Shown piece after piece: positions 1,650 through 48,775 of a stretch of 64,000 nt of DNA. Origin of the DNA: Escherichia coli (GTDB lineage: Bacteria; Pseudomonadota; Gammaproteobacteria; Enterobacterales; Enterobacteriaceae); NCBI GenBank assembly GCA_005400705.1, contig GCA_005400705.1_4079.1. One strand, 5' to 3'. The first letter of the stretch is position 1. The number at the start of each line of letters is the position of its first letter. The position numbers and the translations under genes are program-made. A model generated the notes under the pieces. The model did no database searches. It was not told where the DNA came from and was given only the letters and a program-made list of their open reading frames with translations.

Positions 1650-4600
1650 TTAAGAACCGATATTAATATTACTTTTAGCTAGTGAGTTAACAATTTGAAC
1701 ATTTTCAACAGATGCAGTACTCAAAAATATTTGGTCTGAACGTGAAGGGATTTCAAATAGAGAGCCAAATTTTGAATTTGGATTTTGTGCAACTATAACA
1801 ATGGTACTAATATGTCTACCTAACTGTGAGTGTATGTAAGTACACAAATCAGTATAATAGAAACTTTCACCGAAATCCCAGTTATCAACATTGAAGTATT
1901 CATTAGTTAATGCTATAACATTTTGACGAATTTCATCGTCACTCATTGTGCTGTTTGGTAATTTCACTACTTTAAAATCAGCTTTGTAATCTTCAGCAGC
2001 ACTGTTGCCAAATAAAGGTAAGTACTCAGCACTATGCCAAATAATACTATCACTAATGACTATTTTTTGTTCAACATCTTTGAACATATCTTTCAATTCA
2101 ACCGATGTAGGTGGTTTAGGAATACTACCAACAGCATTATTTTTCAACCAAACGTCAACTTCAGTTTTATATGAATTGGTTAATACATACATATCAATTA
2201 AGTTTGTTCTACTAGGATCAATGCGATTGTCGTCAGGTGCATAGTGTTTCCAATGGAAGTCTATACTAGTACGTGCATTAGTTTTAACAGTGTACTGTGA
2301 AGTAACATCTTTGTATCCATAATAATCTAGCTTCTGATTCTCGTCAGCATTAGTTCCCATGTTATTAATTGCACGATAAAAAGCCAATTCAGGACTAACA
2401 GTGCCAGTATCATCGGAATAAGTTAAATTACTAATTAGCTGTCCTAAACGATCATTGTTATTACCAACTGTTTGTTCAATAAAATAATATTTACCATCAT
2501 AGTTAAAACCAACTAAAAATCCAGAACCTTTACTATATAATCCACTCAATGTGGTTGAACGAATTGCGTTATTTCTAACAAATTCAGTTCTTTTATATGC
2601 ATTCGGCTCTGCCAAGGCTTGTTCCATTGTATAAGACCACGATGAATCAAGAAGTGTGAAGGTATCATTTGGTAACGACAGTACTGATATAGTGAAATCA
2701 CTATTTTCCTGAAATACCAAAATACCACCATATTTTAATGCATCGGTTCCAGTCCAAGTAGGAACAATTTCTTTAAATTGGTTTGGTTCCAATGGTATAC
2801 CATTACTATCTACTTTCCTAGATGTAACAATAACACGAGAACCATCTAGATAGCCATTCTCTTGTTGAATTGTGTCATAAATTTGAAAATCTATATTACT
2901 TGTCAATCCTGAATTACTACTACTAGTAGTGTTAGATGATAAAATTTCAATCTTATCACTTTGAACTGTACCAGTACTAATATCAGTAATTTTTTTAGAT
3001 GATACAAAGTAAAATCTTACTTTTTCTCCACCCACAAAAATATATTCAATACCGTTAGCATCAAATTCCCAAGTTTCTGCTGTATATTTTACATTAATTA
3101 TAATTAAAACTTCATTTCCATTATATACAATAGTATCATCATTGGTACTTACTTCAATAGGAACCCATGATGTCGTTTCTTTGTCATGTACAATAACAAA
3201 ATCAGTTTTTTTATCTAGCATAGCAGAAATTGCTTGAACTTCAACCGAGTTAAATCTAGTTCTATATGGTAAAATGTACTCTATGGCTTGCATTCCACTT
3301 GGAACCGATGTACTCAGTACATAAAATCCATTATCCAATACACTAACTACACTAGCCCATATAGTAGTTCCAGAATTAGAAAATTTAATTAGAGTACCAA
3401 CCTGATATGAACCATAAACTGTACCAGATGAACCCAAAATTCTACCATATGTGTTAGTTGTATAATTTGAATTGTATACCGGAGTCCATGCTTGTTGTAT
3501 TTCAATACCAATTGTATTTGATGGAAACGCTTGGTAACGTTGTATTACCGCATTTTCACCAATCAATGGTTGAATATTGTCAATAACAATACTAGCATTT
3601 GTTTTTGTAGTTGGTAGCAATAATGATCTATTAAATTGTGTGTTTTCTTGATATAATGCACCATCATCACTAAAAACATCGGTATTTTGATACTTACCAG
3701 TAGGATCATTAATATCAATAAATCTTGATTGTCCACTATAAATTCTATTAATAGCTTTAGATTTAAGTACAGTATTGCCTAAACTAAGTGGTGCAATATT
3801 ATAATCTTCACCATTGACAAAACGGTTTTGTGTATAGTACATTTGTGGTGCACGTGCTTTAATCTGCTCAATAGTCTCTGCACTTTGTGCACGGTCGGAC
3901 TCATATTGTAATGAAAAACGTATATCCAATGTACTAGATTCATAACTTGACTGTGTTTTTGTACGATATGTATATTTTACGCTTTTATTTTGAATTTCAG
4001 AAGTTTTAATGTTATATGTTTTACCATTACTAACACGATACCATACACGGAACGTCCCACGGGGAACAACACCACTTCTTGAGTCTGGGTACTTAATTGT
4101 TATTTGGTCTTTATCACGAGTAGTAACAGCAAAAATTGTTTTTAATTGACGATTAACAGTGTTATATGCAATACTTTCCATTGATGGAACTTTTGTCCAT
4201 TTGGTACGAACAATACCATCTTCATTTATTTCTTGAACCCATACATCAGTTTCGTTGATATTATCAACGTTAATATCTTGTATACGGTTCTCTTCACGGA
4301 TAGCATATTGATAATCTTGATATGTCAATGTACCTTGTACGAAATATACAAAAAACCCAGTATTTGGTGAGCTAAATCCATTACCATCATTTTGATAAAC
4401 AATATATTTTTGCTCTTGTGGTTCTGGATGTCGTTCTTCAACACCAACAGACGTAATATCAGGATTCACTACTTCAAATGTCATAGATTCACCATTGACA
4501 GTTGCAACAAATGGAATACTGGGTGCTGTCATTGGGATGGTGTTCATTCGATATAGTTGGCGGGAGACACCATTAACATCAATACGCTTGACTGGATTAC

Positions 4601-5111
4601 CAAATTGGTTAGTACTGACAAATGAACTGTTCATTACTAGAATAAAGTTTTCATACCAGTTAGCATCCATCGGGTCATTCCAACGAATGATTTTATCTTT
4701 TAATGATTCATTAAAACTATTACGAACATCTTGGTTTGTTTTAATTTCGGTTAATTTAGCAACTGCACGACCTGGATATGAGCGGCGTGGTGAGTAAGAA
4801 ATCATTTTAGCTAGTTTTAGTACTGATGCACGACGAGTTGCAGTATCTAAAAAGTTTTCACGTGTGTTCAAATCCATACGAAATGCCAAGTTCTGACCTA
4901 GCATAGAAATCGTATCTAAAATAAAAATAAACTGGTCGTTTTCGATCCAGTCGTTGAATGAGTCTGGGTAAGTTGCACGTAGATAATCAATCATACTCTG
5001 ACGGATAGTATCGAAATCATAAGCTGTTAGATTGATTTTATAAAAACTTTCATATACTTGAGTCCAATCCTCACCACTATATAAATTAGACTGTCTTTTT
5101 TGTTGTGACAT
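1650..5111 (-). CDS. large baseplate wedge-like structural protein (gp6/gp7 class by size and position next to gp25-like gene)
   Basis: 1153-aa ORF directly downstream of gp25-like gene in late minus-strand cluster; product assignment is positional inference. Confidence 0.55.
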   Translation of the reverse strand: MSQQKRQSNLYSGEDWTQVYESFYKINLTAYDFDTIRQSMIDYLRATYPDSFNDWIENDQFIFILDTISMLGQNLAFRMDLNTRENFLDTATRRASVLKLAKMISYSPRRSYPGRAVAKLTEIKTNQDVRNSFNESLKDKIIRWNDPMDANWYENFILVMNSSFVSTNQFGNPVKRIDVNGVSRQLYRMNTIPMTAPSIPFVATVNGESMTFEVVNPDITSVGVEERHPEPQEQKYIVYQNDGNGFSSPNTGFFVYFVQGTLTYQDYQYAIREENRIQDINVDNINETDVWVQEINEDGIVRTKWTKVPSMESIAYNTVNRQLKTIFAVTTRDKDQITIKYPDSRSGVVPRGTFRVWYRVSNGKTYNIKTSEIQNKSVKYTYRTKTQSSYESSTLDIRFSLQYESDRAQSAETIEQIKARAPQMYYTQNRFVNGEDYNIAPLSLGNTVLKSKAINRIYSGQSRFIDINDPTGKYQNTDVFSDDGALYQENTQFNRSLLLPTTKTNASIVIDNIQPLIGENAVIQRYQAFPSNTIGIEIQQAWTPVYNSNYTTNTYGRILGSSGTVYGSYQVGTLIKFSNSGTTIWASVVSVLDNGFYVLSTSVPSGMQAIEYILPYRTRFNSVEVQAISAMLDKKTDFVIVHDKETTSWVPIEVSTNDDTIVYNGNEVLIIINVKYTAETWEFDANGIEYIFVGGEKVRFYFVSSKKITDISTGTVQSDKIEILSSNTTSSSNSGLTSNIDFQIYDTIQQENGYLDGSRVIVTSRKVDSNGIPLEPNQFKEIVPTWTGTDALKYGGILVFQENSDFTISVLSLPNDTFTLLDSSWSYTMEQALAEPNAYKRTEFVRNNAIRSTTLSGLYSKGSGFLVGFNYDGKYYFIEQTVGNNNDRLGQLISNLTYSDDTGTVSPELAFYRAINNMGTNADENQKLDYYGYKDVTSQYTVKTNARTSIDFHWKHYAPDDNRIDPSRTNLIDMYVLTNSYKTEVDVWLKNNAVGSIPKPPTSVELKDMFKDVEQKIVISDSIIWHSAEYLPLFGNSAAEDYKADFKVVKLPNSTMSDDEIRQNVIALTNEYFNVDNWDFGESFYYTDLCTYIHSQLGRHISTIVIVAQNPNSKFGSLFEIPSRSDQIFLSTASVENVQIVNSLAKSNINIGS

Positions 5112-5185
5112 AATTTATTCCTTTAAATCAGTAAAGTACTAGATCAGTACTGGGAATTATATATAGAAATATTTATTCAAAAAGA

Positions 5186-5207
5186 AAAGCACTCCGAAGA
5201 GTGCTTT
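5186..5207. terminator. hairpin terminator (likely bidirectional) between gp25-like and large wedge genes
   Basis: AAAGCACTC-cgaa-GAGTGCTTT hairpin; T-rich tracts on both sides. Confidence 0.5.
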
Positions 5208-5212
5208 TATAA

Positions 5213-5608
5213 TTATAAAGACGAAACTGAATATGTTGCCATTCGATTATTACTTCTTGCATCAAATACTATAGTAAGTTCTTCTAATGCGTCCAATACT
5301 ACGTACTGTAATACAATATTCATTTGGTATCCATATTCTATTCTTGAAATTTGTAATTTTTTAAGATTTAAACGTGGGTCTAAGCTAATTATTCTACGGG
5401 CATCTGCTTCTAAAAGGTTGATAGTATTATAACCTTCCAATTCAAATAGCAAATCCCATGCAATAAACCCATAGTCAGCATCAAATGCTCGTTCACCTTT
5501 TTTTGTATTGAAATGATTCATTAAATCTTGGCGAACCAATTCACTATCATACAATGTTTCAGTTCTACCAACTACAGGGGTAGAAAACCCTTTAAAAACA
5601 ACTGCCAT
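5213..5608 (-). CDS. gp25: baseplate wedge protein, gp25/GPW family
   Basis: 131 aa, similar in size to T4 gp25 (recalled as about 132 aa); motif pattern ...KGERAFDADYGF...LFE... resembles gp25/P2 gpW family; located between lysozyme and large wedge gene. Confidence 0.65.
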   Translation of the reverse strand: MAVVFKGFSTPVVGRTETLYDSELVRQDLMNHFNTKKGERAFDADYGFIAWDLLFELEGYNTINLLEADARRIISLDPRLNLKKLQISRIEYGYQMNIVLQYVVLDALEELTIVFDARSNNRMATYSVSSL

Positions 5609-5623
5609 TGTCTATTTCCTTTA

Positions 5624-6112
5624 TTATACGGATTCAACGATACGTGCCATCTTTTCCGCTCGTGAAGTGGTTTGTTTATACCATGTACTATCACGCAATT
5701 CTTTACCAGCAGTTTTGTAATCAGCTTTACCTAATGCGGTCATTGCTTTTTTAAATTTCAAAACTTTGGTTTTTCCCATTTGGAATACCATTAACCATAA
5801 TACACGTTGTACCTGTACTGGTGCAGTCATACCGAATTGTTCATAAATTGATTTTGCATCATTGTACGCAGTTTGAGCATCTTTGAGAAGAAGTTGGTCA
5901 GCTTGAGCTTCGGTCAAACCATTCTTGAAATTTTCACCAGGAAGAACTAGATGACCATAACCAATAGTATCAAGACCTAAACTGTCTTTATATACCCAAA
6001 ACTTATCATTTTTAAAATAACCAAGTTTTTTCTGATAAGCAATAGTTCCTTCAAATTCTTTAATTTCCTTAAAAAATTGCTCATCTGTATTTTTAATTTC
6101 CCATTTACTCAT
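5624..6112 (-). CDS. T4-type lysozyme (glycoside hydrolase family 24), probable endolysin
   Basis: 162 aa; catalytic-region motif EFEGT...YKDSLGLDTIGYGH, MVFQMG, WYKQT..RAEK match T4 lysozyme E/D/T triad layout; RBS GAGGA. Confidence 0.85.
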   Translation of the reverse strand: MSKWEIKNTDEQFFKEIKEFEGTIAYQKKLGYFKNDKFWVYKDSLGLDTIGYGHLVLPGENFKNGLTEAQADQLLLKDAQTAYNDAKSIYEQFGMTAPVQVQRVLWLMVFQMGKTKVLKFKKAMTALGKADYKTAGKELRDSTWYKQTTSRAEKMARIVESV

Positions 6113-6128
6113 AAAGATATCCTCGTTT

Positions 6129-6136
6129 TATTTATA
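6129..6136 (-). promoter_or_regulatory. T4-type late promoter element TATAAATA upstream of lysozyme gene
   Basis: plus-strand tatttata = minus-strand TATAAATA, located between gp5-like stop and lysozyme start. Confidence 0.5.
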
Positions 6137-6148
6137 GTGCTAAAATAT

Positions 6149-8812
6149 TTATTGACATGCCTCCAAACGACGAGCCATTAACTCCGCACGGCGTGTGGTT
6201 TGGCGATACCAAGCAGAATTACGGATTTGTGCCGCTGCTTGTTTGTAATTACCTTTTGCCATTTCTGATAACATAGTTTTAAATTTCAATACACCACCTT
6301 TACCCATCTGAAATACCATTTGGCATAGTACTTGTTGAGCAAGATAAGGAGTTTTCATGTTATATGATGCATAAATTGATTTGGCATCATAAATTGCTTT
6401 ACTACTATCACGAACTAACATATCGTTGGCTTGCTGTTCAGTTATTCCATCTGAAAAGTTTTCACCACTAATAATCAAGTGACCATAACCAATAGTTGGA
6501 TACCCACGACTATCCAAATAACGCCAGAATTTACCATTACGATAATATCCTTTTGCTTGTTGGTATTGTAATGTACCTTCATATTCTTTTAATTCAGAAA
6601 TAAACTGTGCATCACCTGGAACAACTTTCCAATCGATTGCAGTTTTATCAACATTTCCAATATTATAGGTAGGTTGCTCCACCGGAGTTGTTGAAGCTCC
6701 ACTTCTCTGTGTTCTTCTCCTACGAGGCACATGACGAGAACCACGTTGAGAATATCCAGTACCTATCGTTTTGATTTTTGTTGTAACTACCAATTCATCA
6801 CTATCAACTGAAGGTTGTACAACTGCTTTTGGAGCAGATTGATTAGTTGCTTGACCACCAATTAATGTTTTATTCGCCGCATCAGACCCTGTTCCTGTTT
6901 GTGAAGCATAAAATAATCCTGGGTCAACAGAACCACTGAATCCAAGAACATTTGCTGATGTAACACGAATTTCAAACTGTATGACACCATTTGCTTTTCC
7001 AACAACTTGACCTTTTTGAACAACATCTTTGTTTAATAAATCAGATTGAATATTATAAAAAATAGATTTATATCCAGACTTATGTTGTATTAAAAGAGCA
7101 CCATTAGTAATTACTACCACACCACCATCTGGTGCAACTACATCACCTTTACATTGTATTTCCCAACCTGAACGGTCTGCCTTTCCTCCACTTTGTGTTG
7201 GAACACCTTTCCCCCAGTAACCATATTGTCGAATAGTACCGCTACATGGCATTAACATATGTAAACCTTCATATGTAATACTATATCCAGTCATCCCAGG
7301 ATCAGATGTCATCAAATCTTGTGATTGAACTTGTTCAGTTTCTGATGTATAGTTAACAAACTGAACAGCTTCAGTGTCTTGTGCTACGGGTAATTCTGGT
7401 GATACATCATTTGCTGGTTGTGGTTGTACTGGTGATTCACTAGAACCACTTCCACCACCTTGTCTTGGTGGTTCAACATAACTACCATGATTTTCAGCGT
7501 TAACCCATGCAGCAATATCATGAATGTGTTCATTAAGACCAGCAGATGGTGTTCTAAAGTTTGGTGCAGTAAATTCAGCAGTACCGCTATTACCACCACT
7601 ATTAACTGTTAATGTTTGACCACCACCACTAATAATTGCTGATGATGATCCAATTAGGTTTGCAGATGTTGCGGCAGAAATAGAAGCATTTGAACCAGCC
7701 GTAATATCAGTACTGCTACCACTTTGCATACGTAATGATGCAGCAGTAACTAAACGAAGGTCTGCCCCAGAATTAACAACAACTTGACCACCAACTTTTG
7801 CATCAAGAGCACCAATTAGATCTAATTTAGTATTTGCACCAACTCGTGCATTGAAATCTTGTCCGGTTTCAATATTATATGAACGTCCAGCAGTAATATT
7901 AATATCTTGACCAGCACGAATATTAATATTCTTATCACAGTGCATGTCAATATCACCTTCACCAGTGAATTTTATACGTGCAGTGCCATCACGGTTAATT
8001 AAAAGAACATCACCAGTAGCTTCTGATAAAAGAAGTTGTGCACCACTACGTGTTTTTATTACGACACCTTCATTTTTACGAGAACCAACACGTGTATCGT
8101 TTACTGGGTTATTAAATTGTGTATCTTGATATCCATCTGGGTCTTGATCCCACGTTGGTGCTGTTAATTCCTCTTCAGTATATCCATCATCAATAATAAA
8201 ACTATTACCACGTGGCGAAGACATACCATATACAGTACTGGTGGTTTGACGAGTACTACTACGATTCGCCAACCCAGCTTCTTCGTCATATAAAAGGTTT
8301 TGCTTTTTAAGACCTGCGATAATTGGAACGTTAGCATATTTGTCTTGCATATCGGTAGTGATAGTGTTACGATCATAGTCAGTAACAGGAAGTGGCATAT
8401 CAGTTCCACCATAATTACTTACTTCAGTTGCCATACCAGGAACCATAGTATTCATACGCTGGTCATATACACAACCAATCCAATATGCTTGGAATGTACG
8501 GGCTTGTGCAAAAATTACAACAACTGTACACCCTACATCTGGTGGTACTGCCCAAAAACCATATCCTTTTGGATATTGACCATATGCATCAGCACTTGGA
8601 ATACCTGGTGTTTTGCCAGCAAAAGGAGACATGTAAGATGCTTCTATCCATGATTCTTTTGAGTTTTTATCACTTTGAGAACCTTGTATCCAAACTTTCA
8701 GTTTTCCTGATTTAGTTGGATCTCTGTTATCCATAACAGTTGCTAACTGCGGATAAGATGGGTCAAAACGACCCAACTGCTGTTGTGCATACTTTTTACT
8801 TGTATCTGCCAT
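6149..8812 (-). CDS. gp5: baseplate central spike/hub protein (gp5-like) with beta-helix repeats, M23-like region and C-terminal T4-type lysozyme domain
   Basis: 887 aa; N-terminus resembles gp5 OB-fold region; central repetitive V/G/S/T-rich beta-helix-like repeats; C-terminal 150 aa paralogous to adjacent free lysozyme (EYEGT...PTIGYGH, MVFQMG, WYRQT). Confidence 0.8.
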   Translation of the reverse strand: MADTSKKYAQQQLGRFDPSYPQLATVMDNRDPTKSGKLKVWIQGSQSDKNSKESWIEASYMSPFAGKTPGIPSADAYGQYPKGYGFWAVPPDVGCTVVVIFAQARTFQAYWIGCVYDQRMNTMVPGMATEVSNYGGTDMPLPVTDYDRNTITTDMQDKYANVPIIAGLKKQNLLYDEEAGLANRSSTRQTTSTVYGMSSPRGNSFIIDDGYTEEELTAPTWDQDPDGYQDTQFNNPVNDTRVGSRKNEGVVIKTRSGAQLLLSEATGDVLLINRDGTARIKFTGEGDIDMHCDKNINIRAGQDINITAGRSYNIETGQDFNARVGANTKLDLIGALDAKVGGQVVVNSGADLRLVTAASLRMQSGSSTDITAGSNASISAATSANLIGSSSAIISGGGQTLTVNSGGNSGTAEFTAPNFRTPSAGLNEHIHDIAAWVNAENHGSYVEPPRQGGGSGSSESPVQPQPANDVSPELPVAQDTEAVQFVNYTSETEQVQSQDLMTSDPGMTGYSITYEGLHMLMPCSGTIRQYGYWGKGVPTQSGGKADRSGWEIQCKGDVVAPDGGVVVITNGALLIQHKSGYKSIFYNIQSDLLNKDVVQKGQVVGKANGVIQFEIRVTSANVLGFSGSVDPGLFYASQTGTGSDAANKTLIGGQATNQSAPKAVVQPSVDSDELVVTTKIKTIGTGYSQRGSRHVPRRRRTQRSGASTTPVEQPTYNIGNVDKTAIDWKVVPGDAQFISELKEYEGTLQYQQAKGYYRNGKFWRYLDSRGYPTIGYGHLIISGENFSDGITEQQANDMLVRDSSKAIYDAKSIYASYNMKTPYLAQQVLCQMVFQMGKGGVLKFKTMLSEMAKGNYKQAAAQIRNSAWYRQTTRRAELMARRLEACQ

Positions 8813-8825
8813 AATATTTTATTCC

Positions 8826-11075
8826 TTAATCAACTATACTATCGTGACGTTTGAGTGCACGAATTACAATTGCAGCTTGAATTTGTTGTGTAAAAGAACC
8901 ACCTGCACCAAAATCATGAACAATTTTATTAACACGATAAATTGTTTGGTTAAATGTGGTTGGTGTATTAATATCCAAAACACCAGTGTTATCATTTATT
9001 GATATTACTGGTTGTAATTTCAGTAATAGATACGCTTCAGATGTTATATAATTTGCTACATGATAATCATCTGGGTTAATTTCCATATCTTCACCATTAA
9101 TTACTTGTTCTAGATATTGTAAGTAAGAGTAATCACTCCACCCTAACCAGTACGGGTCGCCTACTACACGCATATCGAGTTTACACAAAAAAGGTCTATT
9201 GTAATAGTTGTCACGTATTTTACGTCTATCCATTTCATATGTGCTGCTGTTATCGTTTAACGAAGCGGATAAAGTTGTTTCATTGTTAGTTGCTTCGGTT
9301 GGCATTGTGAACACTTCACCATAACGGTGACCAACACCATCAGTACCGCCATCGTTTTCTTCATAAGTGGTTACATAATCCTCAATATATTGAGGTAAAA
9401 CATTGACTTGATAGTTATTATAACGGTCTTGTTCTTCTGCGTTACCAACCTGCATTTGATTTTTTGCTAAAGTTTCAACTTCAGTTAACAATTGTTGTTG
9501 GGCTTGTGTTAACATCCCTCCTAAATCACGAGTTACACGTAAATCACTTGTTTTTGCCCATGCGTCTGGTATACTATTGTATTGTACACCTTGAATATTG
9601 AGTTCTTGGGATGTATGTGTACCTGCATGGTTCGCTACATCTTGTATCGGACCAGGGTTACGTGTAGTGGCTACGAAAAATTGCTGATCGAATTTCAAAT
9701 CCAAATCAAGTATCTCACTATTAAGCCCACTAAATTGATAATTATAAGTTTTCATGTTTATTTTTGGTTTTTGATCATTAGGATCTACGTATTTTTCTGC
9801 GTTCTCGAAAAAGTACTCAAATGTGAAATTTTCAGGTTGTAAATCCGATTCATGAACAATATCACCTATTTTAAATCTAACAATATAAAAAATTACTTTA
9901 TAAACAGAAGTATTACGATAATTATCAAAACCAACGTATTGTTTAACTGGTATAATGTTTACAAATTGACGCACACTAGTACTATCATCGGCTTGTACAG
10001 TACATGTATCAATAACGTCATCAATAATTCGAGATATAGGAGTACTTGGGTTCCATGAAAAGTTTTTAGAACCTTGTGCACCACTTTTAGTTGTTCCGGC
10101 CTCTGCCATTTGTTTAGAATCATAGTTTATAAACAAATCTTGCAAATCAGGTGCTACTTTAAATTCGAAAAATTTACCTTCGGATAATTCACCAAATTTA
10201 TATCTAAGATAACCATATTGTTGGTCAGCCATCTGATTTAATTTATCTTCTAAATCAAAGCAGAAGTCACCAAAGTTTTCAGCAGTACAATTGAATGGTT
10301 CTTTTAAGGTCCATTCAATGTTATCAACTAAAGCTGCTCTATTATGAACTAAGTTCATAGTATACATCATAGTACTACCACTTTGTGAAGCACTTGCAGT
10401 AACACTATTAATTTTAACTGACCAGCGTCTTGTTGTTTCTGGGATAATTTCAGGTATTCCATTTTTATTAAAGCCAATAAACTTTAATTCCAAGATCAAT
10501 GGCAAGTCCATAAATTTATGATATCTAAGTTTGTTACTTAACGAAATTAATTCATCATAAAGACTCATACTATTATTTTCAGACATATTAAGTACTGCTG
10601 TATTAAAACAATAGTTTGTTGTCATTCCTGGTGTTGAAGGTCCAGCTTGTGTCATTTGTACACTAGTGATATTATATTTGCCAGTAACACCACTTTCTGA
10701 TATCACATGTCGTTGCACTTCTGCATCTGGGTAAAGCCAAAAGTTTTTAAAATCATCTTTATCTAAGGCAAATAAACAAAAGTGCCATGTTGGATTATCA
10801 TATTTCAATAATTTATTGTCATACGGTATTACAAACTGACTTAAATCTAGATCTTCATAAACTTGATCAACACTAGCACTTTGTTTTGGTAATGATACTA
10901 CATTACTTACATTTGCTTTGTAATTATTTTTTGTAATAGTTTTTACATCATTTTGTAATGTATTTGCTGTAGCTTTCAAACTATCAAGTGCATTAGATGT
11001 GGTGGTTTTAGCCTTACCAGTAATACTTGTAATATCATTTTGAAAATTATCAACTGTACTTCGTAAATCTGCCAT
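8826..11075 (-). CDS. baseplate/tail structural protein (function unknown; hub-associated by position)
   Basis: 749-aa ORF immediately upstream of gp5-like gene, GGAG RBS; no diagnostic motif recognised. Confidence 0.55.
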   Translation of the reverse strand: MADLRSTVDNFQNDITSITGKAKTTTSNALDSLKATANTLQNDVKTITKNNYKANVSNVVSLPKQSASVDQVYEDLDLSQFVIPYDNKLLKYDNPTWHFCLFALDKDDFKNFWLYPDAEVQRHVISESGVTGKYNITSVQMTQAGPSTPGMTTNYCFNTAVLNMSENNSMSLYDELISLSNKLRYHKFMDLPLILELKFIGFNKNGIPEIIPETTRRWSVKINSVTASASQSGSTMMYTMNLVHNRAALVDNIEWTLKEPFNCTAENFGDFCFDLEDKLNQMADQQYGYLRYKFGELSEGKFFEFKVAPDLQDLFINYDSKQMAEAGTTKSGAQGSKNFSWNPSTPISRIIDDVIDTCTVQADDSTSVRQFVNIIPVKQYVGFDNYRNTSVYKVIFYIVRFKIGDIVHESDLQPENFTFEYFFENAEKYVDPNDQKPKINMKTYNYQFSGLNSEILDLDLKFDQQFFVATTRNPGPIQDVANHAGTHTSQELNIQGVQYNSIPDAWAKTSDLRVTRDLGGMLTQAQQQLLTEVETLAKNQMQVGNAEEQDRYNNYQVNVLPQYIEDYVTTYEENDGGTDGVGHRYGEVFTMPTEATNNETTLSASLNDNSSTYEMDRRKIRDNYYNRPFLCKLDMRVVGDPYWLGWSDYSYLQYLEQVINGEDMEINPDDYHVANYITSEAYLLLKLQPVISINDNTGVLDINTPTTFNQTIYRVNKIVHDFGAGGSFTQQIQAAIVIRALKRHDSIVD

Positions 11076-11086
11076 ACGTTACTCCA

Positions 11087-11401
11087 TTAGCCTATGTTTC
11101 GAGTACCATTAAGATAATTTTGTACTCTTTGATTTGCTGGTATTCTAATTGTTACTCCACTTTTAAAATTATATATAGGATCTTCTCCTAGTATGTCTGG
11201 ATTTAACAATGCGAAAATATAATATAAGCGTTCATTACCATACATTTCGTATGCTAAACGCCAAGGTTGATATTCATATTTCAATGGGATCTCATAAAAA
11301 TCATCAGTATCAGCCGGAACAATATCACGTGGTAAATTATACCCAAGATACCATGTTTGTTTCACCTTAGCGTAAGGTGAGTATTGACTATAGTTGGACA
11401 T
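11087..11401 (-). CDS. LysM-like / tail protein X-like domain protein (baseplate-associated)
   Basis: 104 aa; RLAYEMYGNERLYYIFALLNP...GVTIRIP pattern resembles P2 gpX/LysM-like fold; GGAGGA RBS. Confidence 0.5.
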   Translation of the reverse strand: MSNYSQYSPYAKVKQTWYLGYNLPRDIVPADTDDFYEIPLKYEYQPWRLAYEMYGNERLYYIFALLNPDILGEDPIYNFKSGVTIRIPANQRVQNYLNGTRNIG

Positions 11402-12132
11402 TAAATGAATCCTCCTTTACGTAATAGTTCACCACGTTTGAATGCATTGAGGTTGAACGTTTTAGTCATATAATCCGATGTTGGTTGTTCTTCAAGTTGT
11501 AACATAACTGAGATTTTTTGTGGAACCCAAACTTCATCTTGTGGGTTCATATATCCAGTACTTCTAAGTTGTTCGAAGAATTTTCTACTATCCATGTCGG
11601 ATAAATTAAAAGTACTATCGCTACTATTCAACGGAACTTGAATATAAGAAACATCATTTGGGTAAGTAAAATTATAAGATTTTAAAATAACAGGAATATC
11701 ATTATATGTATAACGACCATATCCACTTAGAAGTAAGATTGGTGGTGGTGCACCTGCAATTGCGAGTTCGGGGTTATTAGCCGAAGCAGCTTGTCTACCA
11801 AAATCCATCAACGAAACAGAACGTATAAAATGAACACATGCCAACGCATACATAGCTTCTGCTGCTGTATTCGCATAAAATTCACCCTGAATCGTGAAAA
11901 CTGTATTAGTAGTGTTCTTATAGTTGTTATAGTTACTGTTAGTATGTATAGGGGACTGTGTTTCATACTGAATTGACCTTTGTTCAGTAATTGTTGGTGT
12001 TACAGTCCAAACCAACCCATTAGTTGGACGCAGAAACGAAAGTAGAGTTGGTTCGGAGCTATCTCCAAAATCACCATATACATAGTTAGCACCTGCGGCT
12101 TTAGGTCGTAATCGAATTCTACGATCAATCAT
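11401..12132 (-). CDS. baseplate module protein (hypothetical)
   Basis: Track ORF 11401-12222; start trimmed to ATG at 12132 preceded by GGAGAA RBS and TATAAATA element; 1-nt overlap with downstream gene. Confidence 0.5.
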   Translation of the reverse strand: MIDRRIRLRPKAAGANYVYGDFGDSSEPTLLSFLRPTNGLVWTVTPTITEQRSIQYETQSPIHTNSNYNNYKNTTNTVFTIQGEFYANTAAEAMYALACVHFIRSVSLMDFGRQAASANNPELAIAGAPPPILLLSGYGRYTYNDIPVILKSYNFTYPNDVSYIQVPLNSSDSTFNLSDMDSRKFFEQLRSTGYMNPQDEVWVPQKISVMLQLEEQPTSDYMTKTFNLNAFKRGELLRKGGFI

Positions 12133-12167
12133 CTTTTTGATTCTCCATAATAAGGGAACATTTGATG

Positions 12168-12175
12168 TATTTATA
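12168..12175 (-). promoter_or_regulatory. T4-type late promoter TATAAATA driving minus-strand baseplate cluster
   Basis: plus tatttata; about 36 nt upstream of ATG at 12132. Confidence 0.55.
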
Positions 12176-12263
12176 CGTGGGACAAACTGCTTTTTGGTGC
12201 TATAATAACATTGATGGTACAAGGATTGTACCTATTGGATTTAAACATGGAGAGTAAAATACA

Positions 12264-13103
12264 ATGACAAATAGACCAAAGCGTAAAAAGTATCTCAATA
12301 ATGCTGATTTACTGCGTGAAATACAAAAAAGTAAAATTTCATATTGCTGGTTATTAGACAAATCATATAGTATGTATGATTATATTGTTTTTCATGAGTC
12401 AGAAATTACTGCTGAGTTACTAGAAAAAGCTAAGGCAGCCCGAATTAAACGACTGAACAATGAAATGCTTGATAGTATTCGTGAAAAGGAAAATATGAGT
12501 GCTAAAAAAGCTAAAGAATATGCAGATGAACACAATTTAGTTATCACTGACGTTCCAATTGATGAAGTTGTTATTCGTGTTATTACAGATGAACATATTC
12601 CACCAGATACTAGAGTTAACTTTGAACCATTCAAGCATTATATTGTAGATAATGAAGGTATTCTCTATGAAGTTTGTCGTTCTCACTGGAAAGGCGACCT
12701 TGAAACTGGTGAATTCAGTACTGTTCATGGTAAAATTACAAATGAACTTGGGAAGATGTTCATTAAACTTGCAGAGGAAATCTCACACAAATCTAATTAC
12801 AGAAACTATACATACTTAGATGAAATGATGGGTGATGCAAGAATACAATTAGTTAAAAACGCACTTCTCTTTAAAGAGAGCATTCTTTATAAAAAAGATA
12901 AACCAGCAGTTCAGCTAAATCCTTTCTCTTACTATACATCATTCGTAAACAATAGTTTTCGTTCTATATTGAATAGTGAGAAAAATGTTCGAAATATACG
13001 TGATGATTTACTTGAAATGCATGGCTTTACGCCATCACATACACGTCAAATTGAAATTGAATTGAACATGATTGAAAGGAAAAATGAAGATGGCTCTGTT
13101 TGA
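12264..13103 (+). CDS. gp55: late-transcription sigma factor (gp55-like), extended C-terminus
   Basis: N-terminal KYLNNADLLREIQKSK resembles gp55 N-terminus as recalled; T4-like synteny 55-47-46; GGAGAG RBS. Confidence 0.6.
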   Translation: MTNRPKRKKYLNNADLLREIQKSKISYCWLLDKSYSMYDYIVFHESEITAELLEKAKAARIKRLNNEMLDSIREKENMSAKKAKEYADEHNLVITDVPIDEVVIRVITDEHIPPDTRVNFEPFKHYIVDNEGILYEVCRSHWKGDLETGEFSTVHGKITNELGKMFIKLAEEISHKSNYRNYTYLDEMMGDARIQLVKNALLFKESILYKKDKPAVQLNPFSYYTSFVNNSFRSILNSEKNVRNIRDDLLEMHGFTPSHTRQIEIELNMIERKNEDGSV

Positions 13104-19720: not shown

Positions 19721-19728
19721 TATTTATA
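19721..19728 (-). promoter_or_regulatory. T4-type late promoter TATAAATA for minus-strand gene starting at 19686
   Basis: plus tatttata in divergent intergenic region. Confidence 0.5.
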
Positions 19729-25655: not shown

Positions 25656-25721
25656 CATTTTAAAAATATAAATATCTGTATGTTGAAGTACAGATATTTC
25701 AGTACTTAAAGGAGAGAACGA

Positions 25722-26837: not shown

Positions 26838-26928
26838 ACATTTTAAAGCATTTTAATAATCAAATTTTTCAGTTCTATAAATAATATCATACTGAAAAAC
26901 GAATATAACATCTTTAAGGAGATATATA

Positions 26929-37021: not shown

Positions 37022-37022
37022 T

Positions 37023-37030
37023 ATAAATAA
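37023..37030 (+). promoter_or_regulatory. late-promoter-like TATAAATA element followed by hairpin
   Basis: TATAAATA then GGGGAACA-cta-TGTTCCCC hairpin 37032-37050. Confidence 0.35.
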
Positions 37031-47956: not shown

Positions 47957-48775
47957 ATGACAAAATTAAATGAGTTTTTATCAAATGTAGCAGTTCTAGA
48001 TACTGAAACTACTGGGGTTGAGAGTGAAGATGATATTATTGAATTTAGTATCTCGTATCCACATACTTCACATGAAAACATTGATACTATTGATAACTAT
48101 ACATTGAGATACAAACCCTTGAAAGATATTCCACCAGAGGCATCTGCTGTGCACTTTATCAGTACTGAGGATGTAGCTAATTGTGTTGGGTATAAAGATG
48201 ATTTAGATAACATTGATGCACTTATGGGCTGCCGTAAGTATTTTGTTGGTCATAATGTACAATTTGACCGTAGAATGATGGTAGATAACGAATATAAATA
48301 TCGTAACTCAATTTCACAGTACTTACTTGATGAAAATAAATGGATTTGTACCCTTCGTCTTGCTAAGAAAATGTTCGCAGAAGATATTGAATTTAAAAAC
48401 TTAACTCTAAGTTATTTGTGGTATAAGTTTGGATGTTATCGTGATGTTCATCGACCTGTTAATGCACACGCAGCAAAAGACGATGTGTTTATGTGTTATC
48501 AGGTTCTAATCAAATTAGTTGAAATTGCAATCGAACGTGGATATATCGAACCTAATGGTGATATTGGTGAGCAAATTGTAACTTTCTGCAACACACCAAT
48601 GCGTTATCAATTCATGCCATTTGGTAAACACAAAGGTGAGCCAATGAGTACAGTTCCATTGAATTACATTGAATGGATGATTACTAATAGTGACATTTTA
48701 GATGCAAGTAACCCTAACTGTGATAAAGATTTAGTATATACATTTGAGTACGAATATAATACTCGAACTAATTAA
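47957..48775 (+). CDS. DEDDh-family 3'-5' exonuclease (DnaQ-like; possibly dexA-like)
   Basis: Exo I motif VLDTETTG near N-terminus; later H and D residues in DnaQ-like order. Confidence 0.6.
   Translation: MTKLNEFLSNVAVLDTETTGVESEDDIIEFSISYPHTSHENIDTIDNYTLRYKPLKDIPPEASAVHFISTEDVANCVGYKDDLDNIDALMGCRKYFVGHNVQFDRRMMVDNEYKYRNSISQYLLDENKWICTLRLAKKMFAEDIEFKNLTLSYLWYKFGCYRDVHRPVNAHAAKDDVFMCYQVLIKLVEIAIERGYIEPNGDIGEQIVTFCNTPMRYQFMPFGKHKGEPMSTVPLNYIEWMITNSDILDASNPNCDKDLVYTFEYEYNTRTN

Follow-up and report, generated by a model that had tools for sequence, protein, structure and literature searches.

A jumbo-coliphage spike with a degenerate LytM domain and a T4-type lysozyme behind its needle, encoded beside a paralogous free lysozyme

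The central spike of phage T4, gp5, combines an OB fold, a GH24 lysozyme, and a triple-stranded β-helix in one chain, with the lysozyme between the OB fold and the helix. This protein undergoes maturation cleavage, has neither an HxH motif nor a LytM domain, and uses a separate PAAR-like tip protein, gp5.4, whose gene lies directly after gene 5; a soluble paralogue of its lysozyme, gp e, is encoded elsewhere in the T4 genome, distant from the gp5 gene. In P2 gpV, phi92 gp138, and the R-pyocin protein PA0616, an OB fold and a β-helix are followed by an HxH motif, and in gpV the Apex that holds this motif ends the protein. The evolved VgrG proteins of type VI secretion systems (T6SS) have a homologous OB fold and β-helix, a fused gp27-like N-terminal domain, a PAAR cap, and enzymatic cargo at the C terminus; VgrG-3 of Vibrio cholerae, with its peptidoglycan-degrading C terminus, is an example. 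Here we describe a spike gene and a neighboring lysozyme gene in a 64,000-nucleotide stretch of DNA from an Escherichia coli assembly (contig GCA_005400705.1_4079.1; this whole stretch is called the window below). Compared with T4 gp5, the lysozyme of this spike follows the helix, a 135-residue insertion takes its place behind the OB fold, both an HxH motif and a LytM domain are present, and the free lysozyme paralogue adjoins the spike gene. Whereas gpV stops at its Apex, the chain continues for 456 residues past the HxH. Unlike an evolved VgrG, the protein belongs to a phage virion, carries HxH, and has no fused gp27-like domain (the OB fold begins at residue 23, and Pfam finds no gp27/Phage_GPD match).

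We consider it likely that this protein serves a Rak2-like (Asteriusvirus) jumbo myophage as its central, membrane-piercing spike, a needle to which a dead LytM domain and a GH24 lysozyme are tethered as cargo, and that its free paralogue is a lysis enzyme that is not packaged. The underlying domain reading, in which a gp5-like chain runs from an OB fold through a β-helix, an M23-like segment without HxH, and an RRRR linker to a C-terminal T4-type lysozyme, had been proposed in an initial annotation of the sequence and is borne out by Pfam, profile comparisons, and AlphaFold models. Both open reading frames that it called are present on the minus strand, with 887 residues for the spike (6149–8812) and 162 for the free lysozyme (5624–6112). 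The coordinates of all features are collected in Table 1.

The source of the window is a known 121Q/phAPEC6-type jumbo coliphage. Over positions 5200–11100 the DNA is 98.9% identical to Escherichia phage vB_EcoM_phAPEC6 (Asteriusvirus) and 97.8–98.6% identical to PBECO4, 121Q, and other Asteriusvirus jumbo coliphages. In phAPEC6 the spike corresponds to gp241, annotated as a "lysozyme family protein," and the free lysozyme to gp242, annotated as a "hypothetical protein." By tblastn, the spike is 99.9% identical to the proteins of phAPEC6, PBECO4, and other members of Asteriusvirus. Its counterparts in Klebsiella, Erwinia, and Salmonella phages share 58–68% identity with it, and the synteny is kept there too. 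The novelty that the initial annotation implied for this architecture therefore does not hold: it is standard in related phages, with matches covering at least 80% of the spike encoded in 73 deposited phage genomes, PHROG 13211 matching it end to end (887/887), and a published account of the layout. That account (Buttimer et al. 2017, PMC5259590) describes CBB_240, the spike homologue of phage CBB, as a protein of 894 residues compared with 575 in gp5, in which a gp5 OB domain stands at the N terminus and a lysozyme at the C terminus; for the Rak2-like phages it notes an architecture unlike that of gp5, a central M23 domain, and an adjoining T4-type lysozyme gene. The main architecture of these jumbo phage spikes has thus been in print since 2017. 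That account does not cover the β-helix, the degenerate state of the LytM domain, the HxH inside the chain, how old the duplication is, or the modularity of the cargo. A metagenome-scale protein database adds 86 clusters of full-length homologues. The residue counts given below refer to 87 full-length family members and the counts of Pfam domains across the family to 22 diverse members.

The N-terminal half of the protein reads as a needle. Phage_base_V, the Pfam family of the OB fold, was found in 22 of 22 members. A profile of residues 1–486 built from 18 family members matches T6SS VgrG over both the OB fold and the β-helix (8gra, E 1e-05; further matches are 9gtr, 9jg8, and 4uhv). The AlphaFold monomer of the same residues is confident just for the β-helix, with a predicted local distance difference test score (pLDDT) of 80–92 over residues ~250–420, and for parts of the OB fold. 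A fold search with this model returned the central spikes of extracellular contractile injection systems, T6SS VgrGs, and T4 gp5, together with the R2 pyocin spike, the phiKZ spike, and P2 gpV; Apex-bearing spikes are represented among these matches by 4s37 and 3qr8. That the lysozyme follows the β-helix, as initially annotated, can be read from one alignment alone. Against 9f4a, the solved structure of a gp5 homologue, the query lysozyme (residues 763–878) pairs with residues 189–326 and the query helix (residues 283–385) with residues 444–544, so that the order is the reverse of that in T4 gp5.

Between OB fold and helix the spike has ~135 residues, compared with ~16 in VgrG. This insertion sits at the topological site that the lysozyme occupies in T4 gp5 and is the best-conserved segment of the spike, with 72% and 54% identity in two groups of members and 36 near-invariant residues. 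It has no match in Pfam or the PDB, and in the monomer model most of it is of low confidence (pLDDT <50 at residues 116–201 and 218–238). Our guess is that it contacts the hub or the other chains of the trimer.

Directly after the β-helix, in the sequence LNEHIHD, lie two histidine residues, His429 and His431, that are invariant in 87 of 87 members. Distant members read SLNxHxHP.G at this point, a form that we take to resemble the C terminus of P2 gpV. In the published description of that protein (the P2 Apex paper), an iron-binding Apex domain is recognized by an HxH in the C-terminal part of the spike; in gpV this domain spans residues 191–211 at the chain end and includes His197 and His199. 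Spikes that lack HxH have a PAAR protein instead, as T4 gp5 does with gp5.4. Because the motif stands directly after the helix of an OB-fold spike, an Apex would be present here by the published criterion. The HxH probably forms an iron histidine cage of the P2 gpV type, that is, a trimeric iron Apex that would close the helix. No PAAR match was found by Pfam at E ≤ 0.1 in the seven proteins of the baseplate operon, the rest of the ~350-kb genome not having been searched.

Beyond the first linker lies the domain that the initial annotation had described as M23-like but devoid of a catalytic HxH pair. Both parts of that description stand, the first at the level of the family. The protein from the window alone has no M23 match in Pfam at E ≤ 0.1, whereas PF01551 is matched by 19 of 22 homologues (best E 7e-10). 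A profile of residues 490–726 finds solved M23/LytM domains, namely those of LasA (9e-07), SpoIIQ (2e-06), DipM (2e-04), and EnvC (0.025). The AlphaFold model of residues ~514–654 has pLDDT >90, and its best fold neighbors in the PDB include active M23 enzymes as well as LytM domains, namely those of PrgK, DipM, and EnvC; Foldseek gave a probability of 1.00 for many M23 structures. The LytM domain of PrgK (8s0u) is the top fold match, and EnvC (4bh5) gives the best compact superposition, with a template-modeling score of 0.70 normalized to the target and a root-mean-square deviation of 3.3 Å.

The catalytic positions were placed by homology. The register of HxH was taken from the HvHFEIR segment of SpoIIQ, which points to positions 610 and 612, and that of YxH from a local hmmsearch match to the WYMH segment of lysostaphin, which points to position 587; the lysostaphin sequence is one that we assume to be correct, and a global alignment made with mafft --add was unreliable and was not used. 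In none of the 87 members is there a histidine at positions 610 or 612, equivalent to HxH, or at 587 or 588, equivalent to YxH, and no conserved His…Asp pair occurs among them in the HxxxD region (residues 545–557). The sole conserved histidine, His577, appears, from our reading of the family consensus, to match the structural histidine of the M23 profile (idHgnG). The domain is nevertheless well kept, with 59% identity in the crown group, 38% in distant members, and 24 near-invariant residues, compared with 23 in the lysozyme domain. This pattern of conservation is that of a domain under purifying selection. Since the catalytic residues are lost in all members and the domain is conserved all the same, we regard it as a maintained non-catalytic LytM domain, neither a decaying relic nor a peculiarity of one phage.

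Could the domain still be an active endopeptidase that works through non-canonical residues, giving a spike with two wall-degrading activities? The tail-tip enzyme gp13 of phi29 combines a lysozyme-like domain with a LytM domain of the M23 fold that works as a zinc peptidase; M23 domains are annotated in many tape-measure, hub, and ejection proteins of phages, active ones are known among phage tail proteins, and the fold and its conservation in the present spike would agree with such a role. The likeness to gp13 lies in the pairing of a glycosidase with an M23-fold domain in a tail-tip protein. However, gp13 has the reverse domain order and is not an OB-fold/β-helix spike, whereas here a dead LytM domain follows a needle. 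The replacement of both HxH histidines, one catalytic and one zinc-binding, and of the catalytic YxH histidine throughout the family, together with the missing His…Asp pair, speaks against an active enzyme, as does the fact that the nearest structural neighbors with the same losses (PrgK, EnvC, DipM, and SpoIIQ) are non-catalytic. We regard activity of this kind as highly improbable.

The closest functional parallel for the LytM domain comes from PrgK of the pCF10 type IV secretion system, in which a degenerate, metal-free LytM domain downregulates a muramidase in the same chain. Like PrgK, EnvC, NlpD, DipM, and SpoIIQ, the spike has a LytM fold without the metal site, and as in PrgK a degenerate LytM domain and a muramidase are joined in one envelope-crossing machine. 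PrgK differs in having a muramidase of the SLT fold and a CHAP domain, whereas the spike has a GH24 domain and no CHAP; a regulatory role in the spike is suggested by the analogy with PrgK. Such domains can also act on separate hydrolases, as the PDB titles of EnvC and DipM structures indicate for activation. By these analogies the most likely role of the LytM domain in the spike is to bind peptidoglycan or to regulate a hydrolase, either the adjoining lysozyme domain or a host enzyme.

The C-terminal domain is a GH24 lysozyme whose best sequence matches in the PDB are the lysozyme domains of gp5. It and the free lysozyme both score above the Phage_lysozyme (PF00959) cut-off of 22.3 bits, and in alignment with T4 lysozyme both retain the catalytic Glu/Asp/Thr, as initially noted: Glu11, Asp20, and Thr26 of the T4 enzyme correspond to Glu745, Asp767, and Thr773 in the spike and to Glu20, Asp43, and Thr49 in the free enzyme. 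Across the family Glu745 and Asp767 are each kept in 86 of 87 members and Thr773 in 61 of 87. With its catalytic triad intact, the spike-borne domain is predicted to be active. As for the free enzyme, its orthologue LysUE1 of phage UE-S1 (96% identical) has been purified and is muralytic on E. coli in the presence of ethylenediaminetetraacetate.

The initial annotation had also taken the free lysozyme to be a paralogue of the spike domain that arose by local duplication or domain capture. The paralogy is clear, with 52% identity to spike residues 728–885 over 158 ungapped residues (E 5e-57). The two are each other's closest relatives, being 51–52% identical to one another compared with ~30% to T4 gp e, and they have in common a unique insertion of ~13 residues between the catalytic Glu and Asp and the absence of a T4-specific loop. 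The duplication is an old one, however. The nucleotide sequences of the two lysozymes are 59% identical overall and 48% at third codon positions, the longest common run is 17 nucleotides, and divergence is even along the gene; a recent duplication or gene conversion is ruled out by these values. In a neighbor-joining tree (200 bootstraps) the spike-borne and free lysozymes of the crown group form a clade with 100% support, inside which the five free copies, from Escherichia, Klebsiella, Salmonella, Erwinia, and Xanthomonas phages, form a clade with 78% support. The nesting of a five-genus clade of free lysozymes within the joint clade indicates one duplication before those phages diverged. Deep nodes of the tree have bootstraps of 7–50%, and the free lysozymes of the distant metagenomic lineages P0077 and P0085 are not assignable to the same duplication. 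No third lysozyme paralogue was found in the window by tblastn.

The order of spike gene and then free lysozyme gene recurs in RaK2, Erwinia phage pEa_SNUABM_12, Salmonella phage 7t3, and Xanthomonas phage XaC1, and also in P0077 and P0085. In RaK2 (L002) four small hypothetical open reading frames, two of them on the opposite strand, lie between the two genes (7842–9335), which places the free lysozyme ~1.8 kb downstream; in the other sampled phages that have it, the two genes adjoin. The free lysozyme is absent in P0080, P0076, and P0084, where the gp25-like gene comes directly after the spike gene and the operons are otherwise collinear. At such collinear baseplate operons, presence or absence of the free lysozyme differs between lineages L006, L007, and L009 on the one hand and L005, L008, and L010 on the other, a pattern that either repeated loss or repeated gain could have produced, given the low support of the deep tree nodes.

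The 36-nucleotide spacer upstream of the free lysozyme gene holds a candidate late promoter and a ribosome-binding site. The promoter candidate is TATAAATA, which we take to be the T4 late-promoter consensus. This sequence is not enriched in the window (7 sites compared with ~10 expected), and its placement, rather than its number, hints at a late-promoter role: six of the seven sites lie 17–57 nucleotides upstream of an ATG gene start on the same strand, among them those of the first baseplate-operon gene and of the free lysozyme. These six are at 6129–6136(−), 12168–12175(−), 19721–19728(−), 25667–25674(+), 26876–26883(+), and 37022–37029(+); the exception is at 48293–48300(+). The sequence also stands upstream of the free lysozyme of RaK2 and is absent at this position in the Erwinia and Xanthomonas phages. 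Terminator-like hairpins on the minus strand follow the gp25-like gene and the wedge gene only, with none between the spike and free lysozyme genes. A scan for sigma-70 promoters gave fewer matches than shuffled sequence and was uninformative.

Taken together as a mechanism, these features would work as follows. The OB fold would dock on the tube or hub, and the trimeric β-helix with its HxH would form the needle. Past the tip, the chain would run via the flexible ~66-residue linker into the tethered LytM and GH24 cargo, which we infer to stay attached without cleavage. In the assembled baseplate, linker 1, which by our estimate could extend to ~230 Å, would let the cargo fold back along the ~100-Å helix, giving a spatial arrangement like that of T4 gp5 by a different chain connectivity. 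Upon tail contraction the spike would breach the outer membrane, and three tethered lysozyme domains would then cut peptidoglycan locally so that the tube could pass. The dead LytM domain most likely regulates or positions the lysozyme, and could do so as a safety catch or a positioning module, which would make the cargo self-regulated. The free lysozyme, a soluble protein, would not be packaged; it is probably expressed from a late promoter of its own and probably helps to lyse the cell from inside, with enough redundancy that some lineages could lose it. A more specific version of this scheme, to which we give a small share of credence, would make the spike a phage counterpart of an evolved VgrG: a self-sharpened iron-Apex needle whose dead LytM domain either inhibits the GH24 domain until delivery, like that of PrgK, or works as EnvC and NlpD do, by recruiting and activating periplasmic amidases of the host to open the wall where the phage enters.

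Several points weigh against the tethered-cargo spike with a non-packaged lysis enzyme beside it. The HxH is followed by 456 residues after His431, compared with ~12 after His199 of gpV, and the surroundings of the motif are modeled with pLDDT <50 in the monomer (residues 421–432 and 447–486). Three cargos of ~45 kDa each must be housed around a piercing tip. Mass spectrometry has recovered little of the protein from virions, with 7 peptides and 9.9% coverage for gp241 in the accessible part of the phAPEC6 virion data and 3 peptides and 4.1% coverage for CBB_240, which is listed as structural (PMC5259590), and this low coverage leaves the C-terminal half unplaced in virions. The HxH cages themselves also occur in fibers and tailspikes, where they act as trimer locks in folding and stability (P2 Apex paper). 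With regard to the free lysozyme, its absence from three sampled distant lineages means that it is dispensable or redundant, and a different, membrane-anchored lysozyme (the CBB_187/121Q gp532 family) has been proposed as the endolysin (PMC5259590); no member of that family was found in the window. A high-resolution baseplate structure of a Rak2-like phage or Asteriusvirus was not found in the literature.

The cages in fibers and tailspikes, the internal position of the motif, and the low-confidence model of the Apex segment would fit a reading in which the HxH is a lock on trimer register only and the true membrane-attacking tip is a separate PAAR-like protein or the folded C-terminal domains. 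The Apex is, moreover, dispensable for P2 infection in the laboratory (P2 Apex paper). However, the motif stands in the setting that the literature treats as diagnostic, directly after a helix of the VgrG/gp5 type in a spike with an OB fold; it is invariant throughout the family; and the proteins of the operon, the part of the genome that was searched, gave no PAAR match. We therefore think that a lock without a tip function is unlikely, and continue to favor a needle closed by an iron Apex.

A second departure from the proposed mechanism would be release of the cargo. Here the C-terminal part would be freed by proteolysis, either in the second linker at Gly691-Ser692…Pro696 or in linker 1, so that the mature spike would consist of the needle only, and the LytM and lysozyme domains would remain bound non-covalently or be lost. 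No other parts of the spike are so poorly conserved or vary so much in length as the two linkers, the 66 residues of linker 1 being spread over 133 alignment columns. The RRRR run that the initial annotation placed in the linker before the lysozyme is present (residues 697–700, inside the low-confidence linker 2) but is lineage-specific, the basic run fading in distant members; the residues of linker 2 that are invariant or nearly so are Gly691, Ser692, and Pro696 only. A short conserved motif in an otherwise variable, disordered linker is what a processing site might look like, T4 gp5 offers a precedent, and the coverage by mass spectrometry is too low to exclude cleavage. However, the RRRR run is not conserved in distant members, and the published tables give a full-length mass of 95.9 kDa only, as a calculated and not a measured value. 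On these grounds cleavage seems rather unlikely, and a cargo that stays tethered is the reading we retain.

The third question is whether the free lysozyme might be a low-copy or transient component of the baseplate, or an assembly factor, rather than a lysis enzyme. Its gene keeps a stable place between the spike and gp25 genes across the sampled crown-group genera, it is not set off from the spike gene by a terminator, and the membrane-anchored candidate could serve as endolysin instead. In the accessible part of the phAPEC6 virion data, gp238–gp240, gp244, and gp245 were found in addition to gp241, and Table 1 of that study passes from gp241 straight to gp244, so that gp242 is apparently absent from it. 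Nor does the free lysozyme figure among the confirmed structural proteins of Rak2-like phages (PMC5259590). The protein has no N-terminal hydrophobic segment, and its orthologue is soluble and active alone. It is also missing in three lineages with otherwise identical baseplate operons, and it has a candidate late promoter of its own. A baseplate role is thus quite unlikely in our judgment, and we favor a soluble enzyme that acts in lysis.

Comparison with more distant relatives shows what is constant in this family and what is not. Spike relatives that are 27–35% identical across the N-terminal ~40% keep the order of OB fold, β-helix, and C-terminal domain, and in shorter relatives of ~555 residues the HxH lies ~95 residues before the C terminus. 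The C-terminal cargo is GH24 in P0094 and P0115 and GH19 in P0099, P0107, and P0110; in P0087, P0089, P0111, P0113, and P0116 no domain could be identified in it. These differences suggest modular exchange of wall-hydrolase cargo at the C terminus of the spike. Because the cargo varies while the order of OB fold and β-helix stays, a needle first and a swappable wall-hydrolase cargo last appears to be a general plan in this spike family, analogous to that of evolved T6SS VgrGs.

Both genes belong to a minus-strand run of baseplate genes, which reads, from 5′ to 3′, a structural protein of 243 or 273 residues, a gp53-like protein, a 749-residue structural protein, the spike, the free lysozyme, a gp25-like protein, and a wedge protein of 1153 residues. 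The two lengths of the first protein reflect its start: the mechanical open reading frame (11401–12222, minus strand) begins at TTG 12222 and gives 273 residues, whereas the annotation of phAPEC6 gp238 (732 nucleotides) corresponds to ATG 12132 and 243 residues. A start at ATG 12132 puts a TATAAATA site 36 nucleotides upstream, in a divergent intergenic region shared with the gene for a gp55-like late sigma factor (12264–13103, plus strand). The 749-residue protein was searched with a gp27-like hub role in mind and has neither a Pfam domain above threshold nor a PDB sequence match; by its position it is a possible hub partner of the gp27 kind.

Table 1. Features of the spike and free lysozyme locus (positions in the window; aa, residues of the spike)
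Feature	Coordinates	Strand	Basis
Central spike gene, 887 aa, orthologue of phAPEC6 gp241	6149–8812	−	ORF (open reading frame), PHROG 13211, tblastn, virion mass spectrometry of orthologue
OB-fold domain, aa 23–116	8465–8746	−	Pfam PF04717 Phage_base_V, E 7.9e-07; 29.8 bits, cut-off 23.8
Conserved insertion, aa 117–250	8063–8464	−	Between OB fold and β-helix; conservation
Triple-stranded β-helix region, aa 251–420	7553–8062	−	Pfam DUF2345 at aa 278–329, 34.7 bits; VgrG profile matches
Putative Apex segment, aa 421–447, with HxH His429/His431 (nt 7520–7528)	7472–7552	−	Invariance and literature signature
Gly/Ser/Pro-rich linker 1, aa 448–513	7274–7471	−	Variable length, low pLDDT
Degenerate LytM domain, aa 514–654	6851–7273	−	M23 signal at family level, LytM fold, zinc ligands lost
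Linker 2, aa 655–727, with Gly691/Ser692/Pro696 and RRRR	6632–6850	−	pLDDT 45–62
C-terminal GH24 T4-type lysozyme domain, aa 728–887	6152–6631	−	Pfam PF00959 at aa 765–882, 44.3 bits
TATAAATA, candidate T4-type late promoter	6129–6136	−	17 nt upstream of free lysozyme start
Free GH24 lysozyme gene, 162 aa, orthologue of phAPEC6 gp242 and LysUE1	5624–6112	−	Pfam PF00959, 37.0 bits
gp25-like baseplate wedge gene	5213–5608	−	Pfam PF04965 GPW_gp25; PHROG 43
Terminator-like hairpin 3′ of gp25-like gene	5185–5208	−	Terminator scan
1153-aa baseplate wedge gene	1650–5111	−	PHROG 10646 and PHROG 219; orthologue gp244 in virions
749-aa virion structural protein directly upstream of spike	8826–11075	−	PHROG 11190; orthologue gp240 in phAPEC6 virions
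gp53-like baseplate wedge gene	11087–11401	−	Pfam PF11246; PHROG 7145

As a discovery the locus is of limited weight, the gene being annotated in dozens of deposited genomes and the layout having been described in 2017, and the free lysozyme family has already been explored as an antibacterial enzyme in the form of LysUE1. Three points keep some value for specialists. An HxH motif with hundreds of residues behind it bears on how a spike tip is built and how cargo passes through the outer membrane; an internal Apex, if real, would mean that the rule of reading HxH as the C-terminal end of a spike needs revision. With its conserved LytM domain, free of a metal site and joined to a muramidase, the spike may provide a phage example of the regulatory logic known from PrgK. 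For the family as a whole, a large clade of jumbo phages appears to build spikes with the needle first and the enzyme cargo last, so that the plan of T4 gp5 would not be the sole one.

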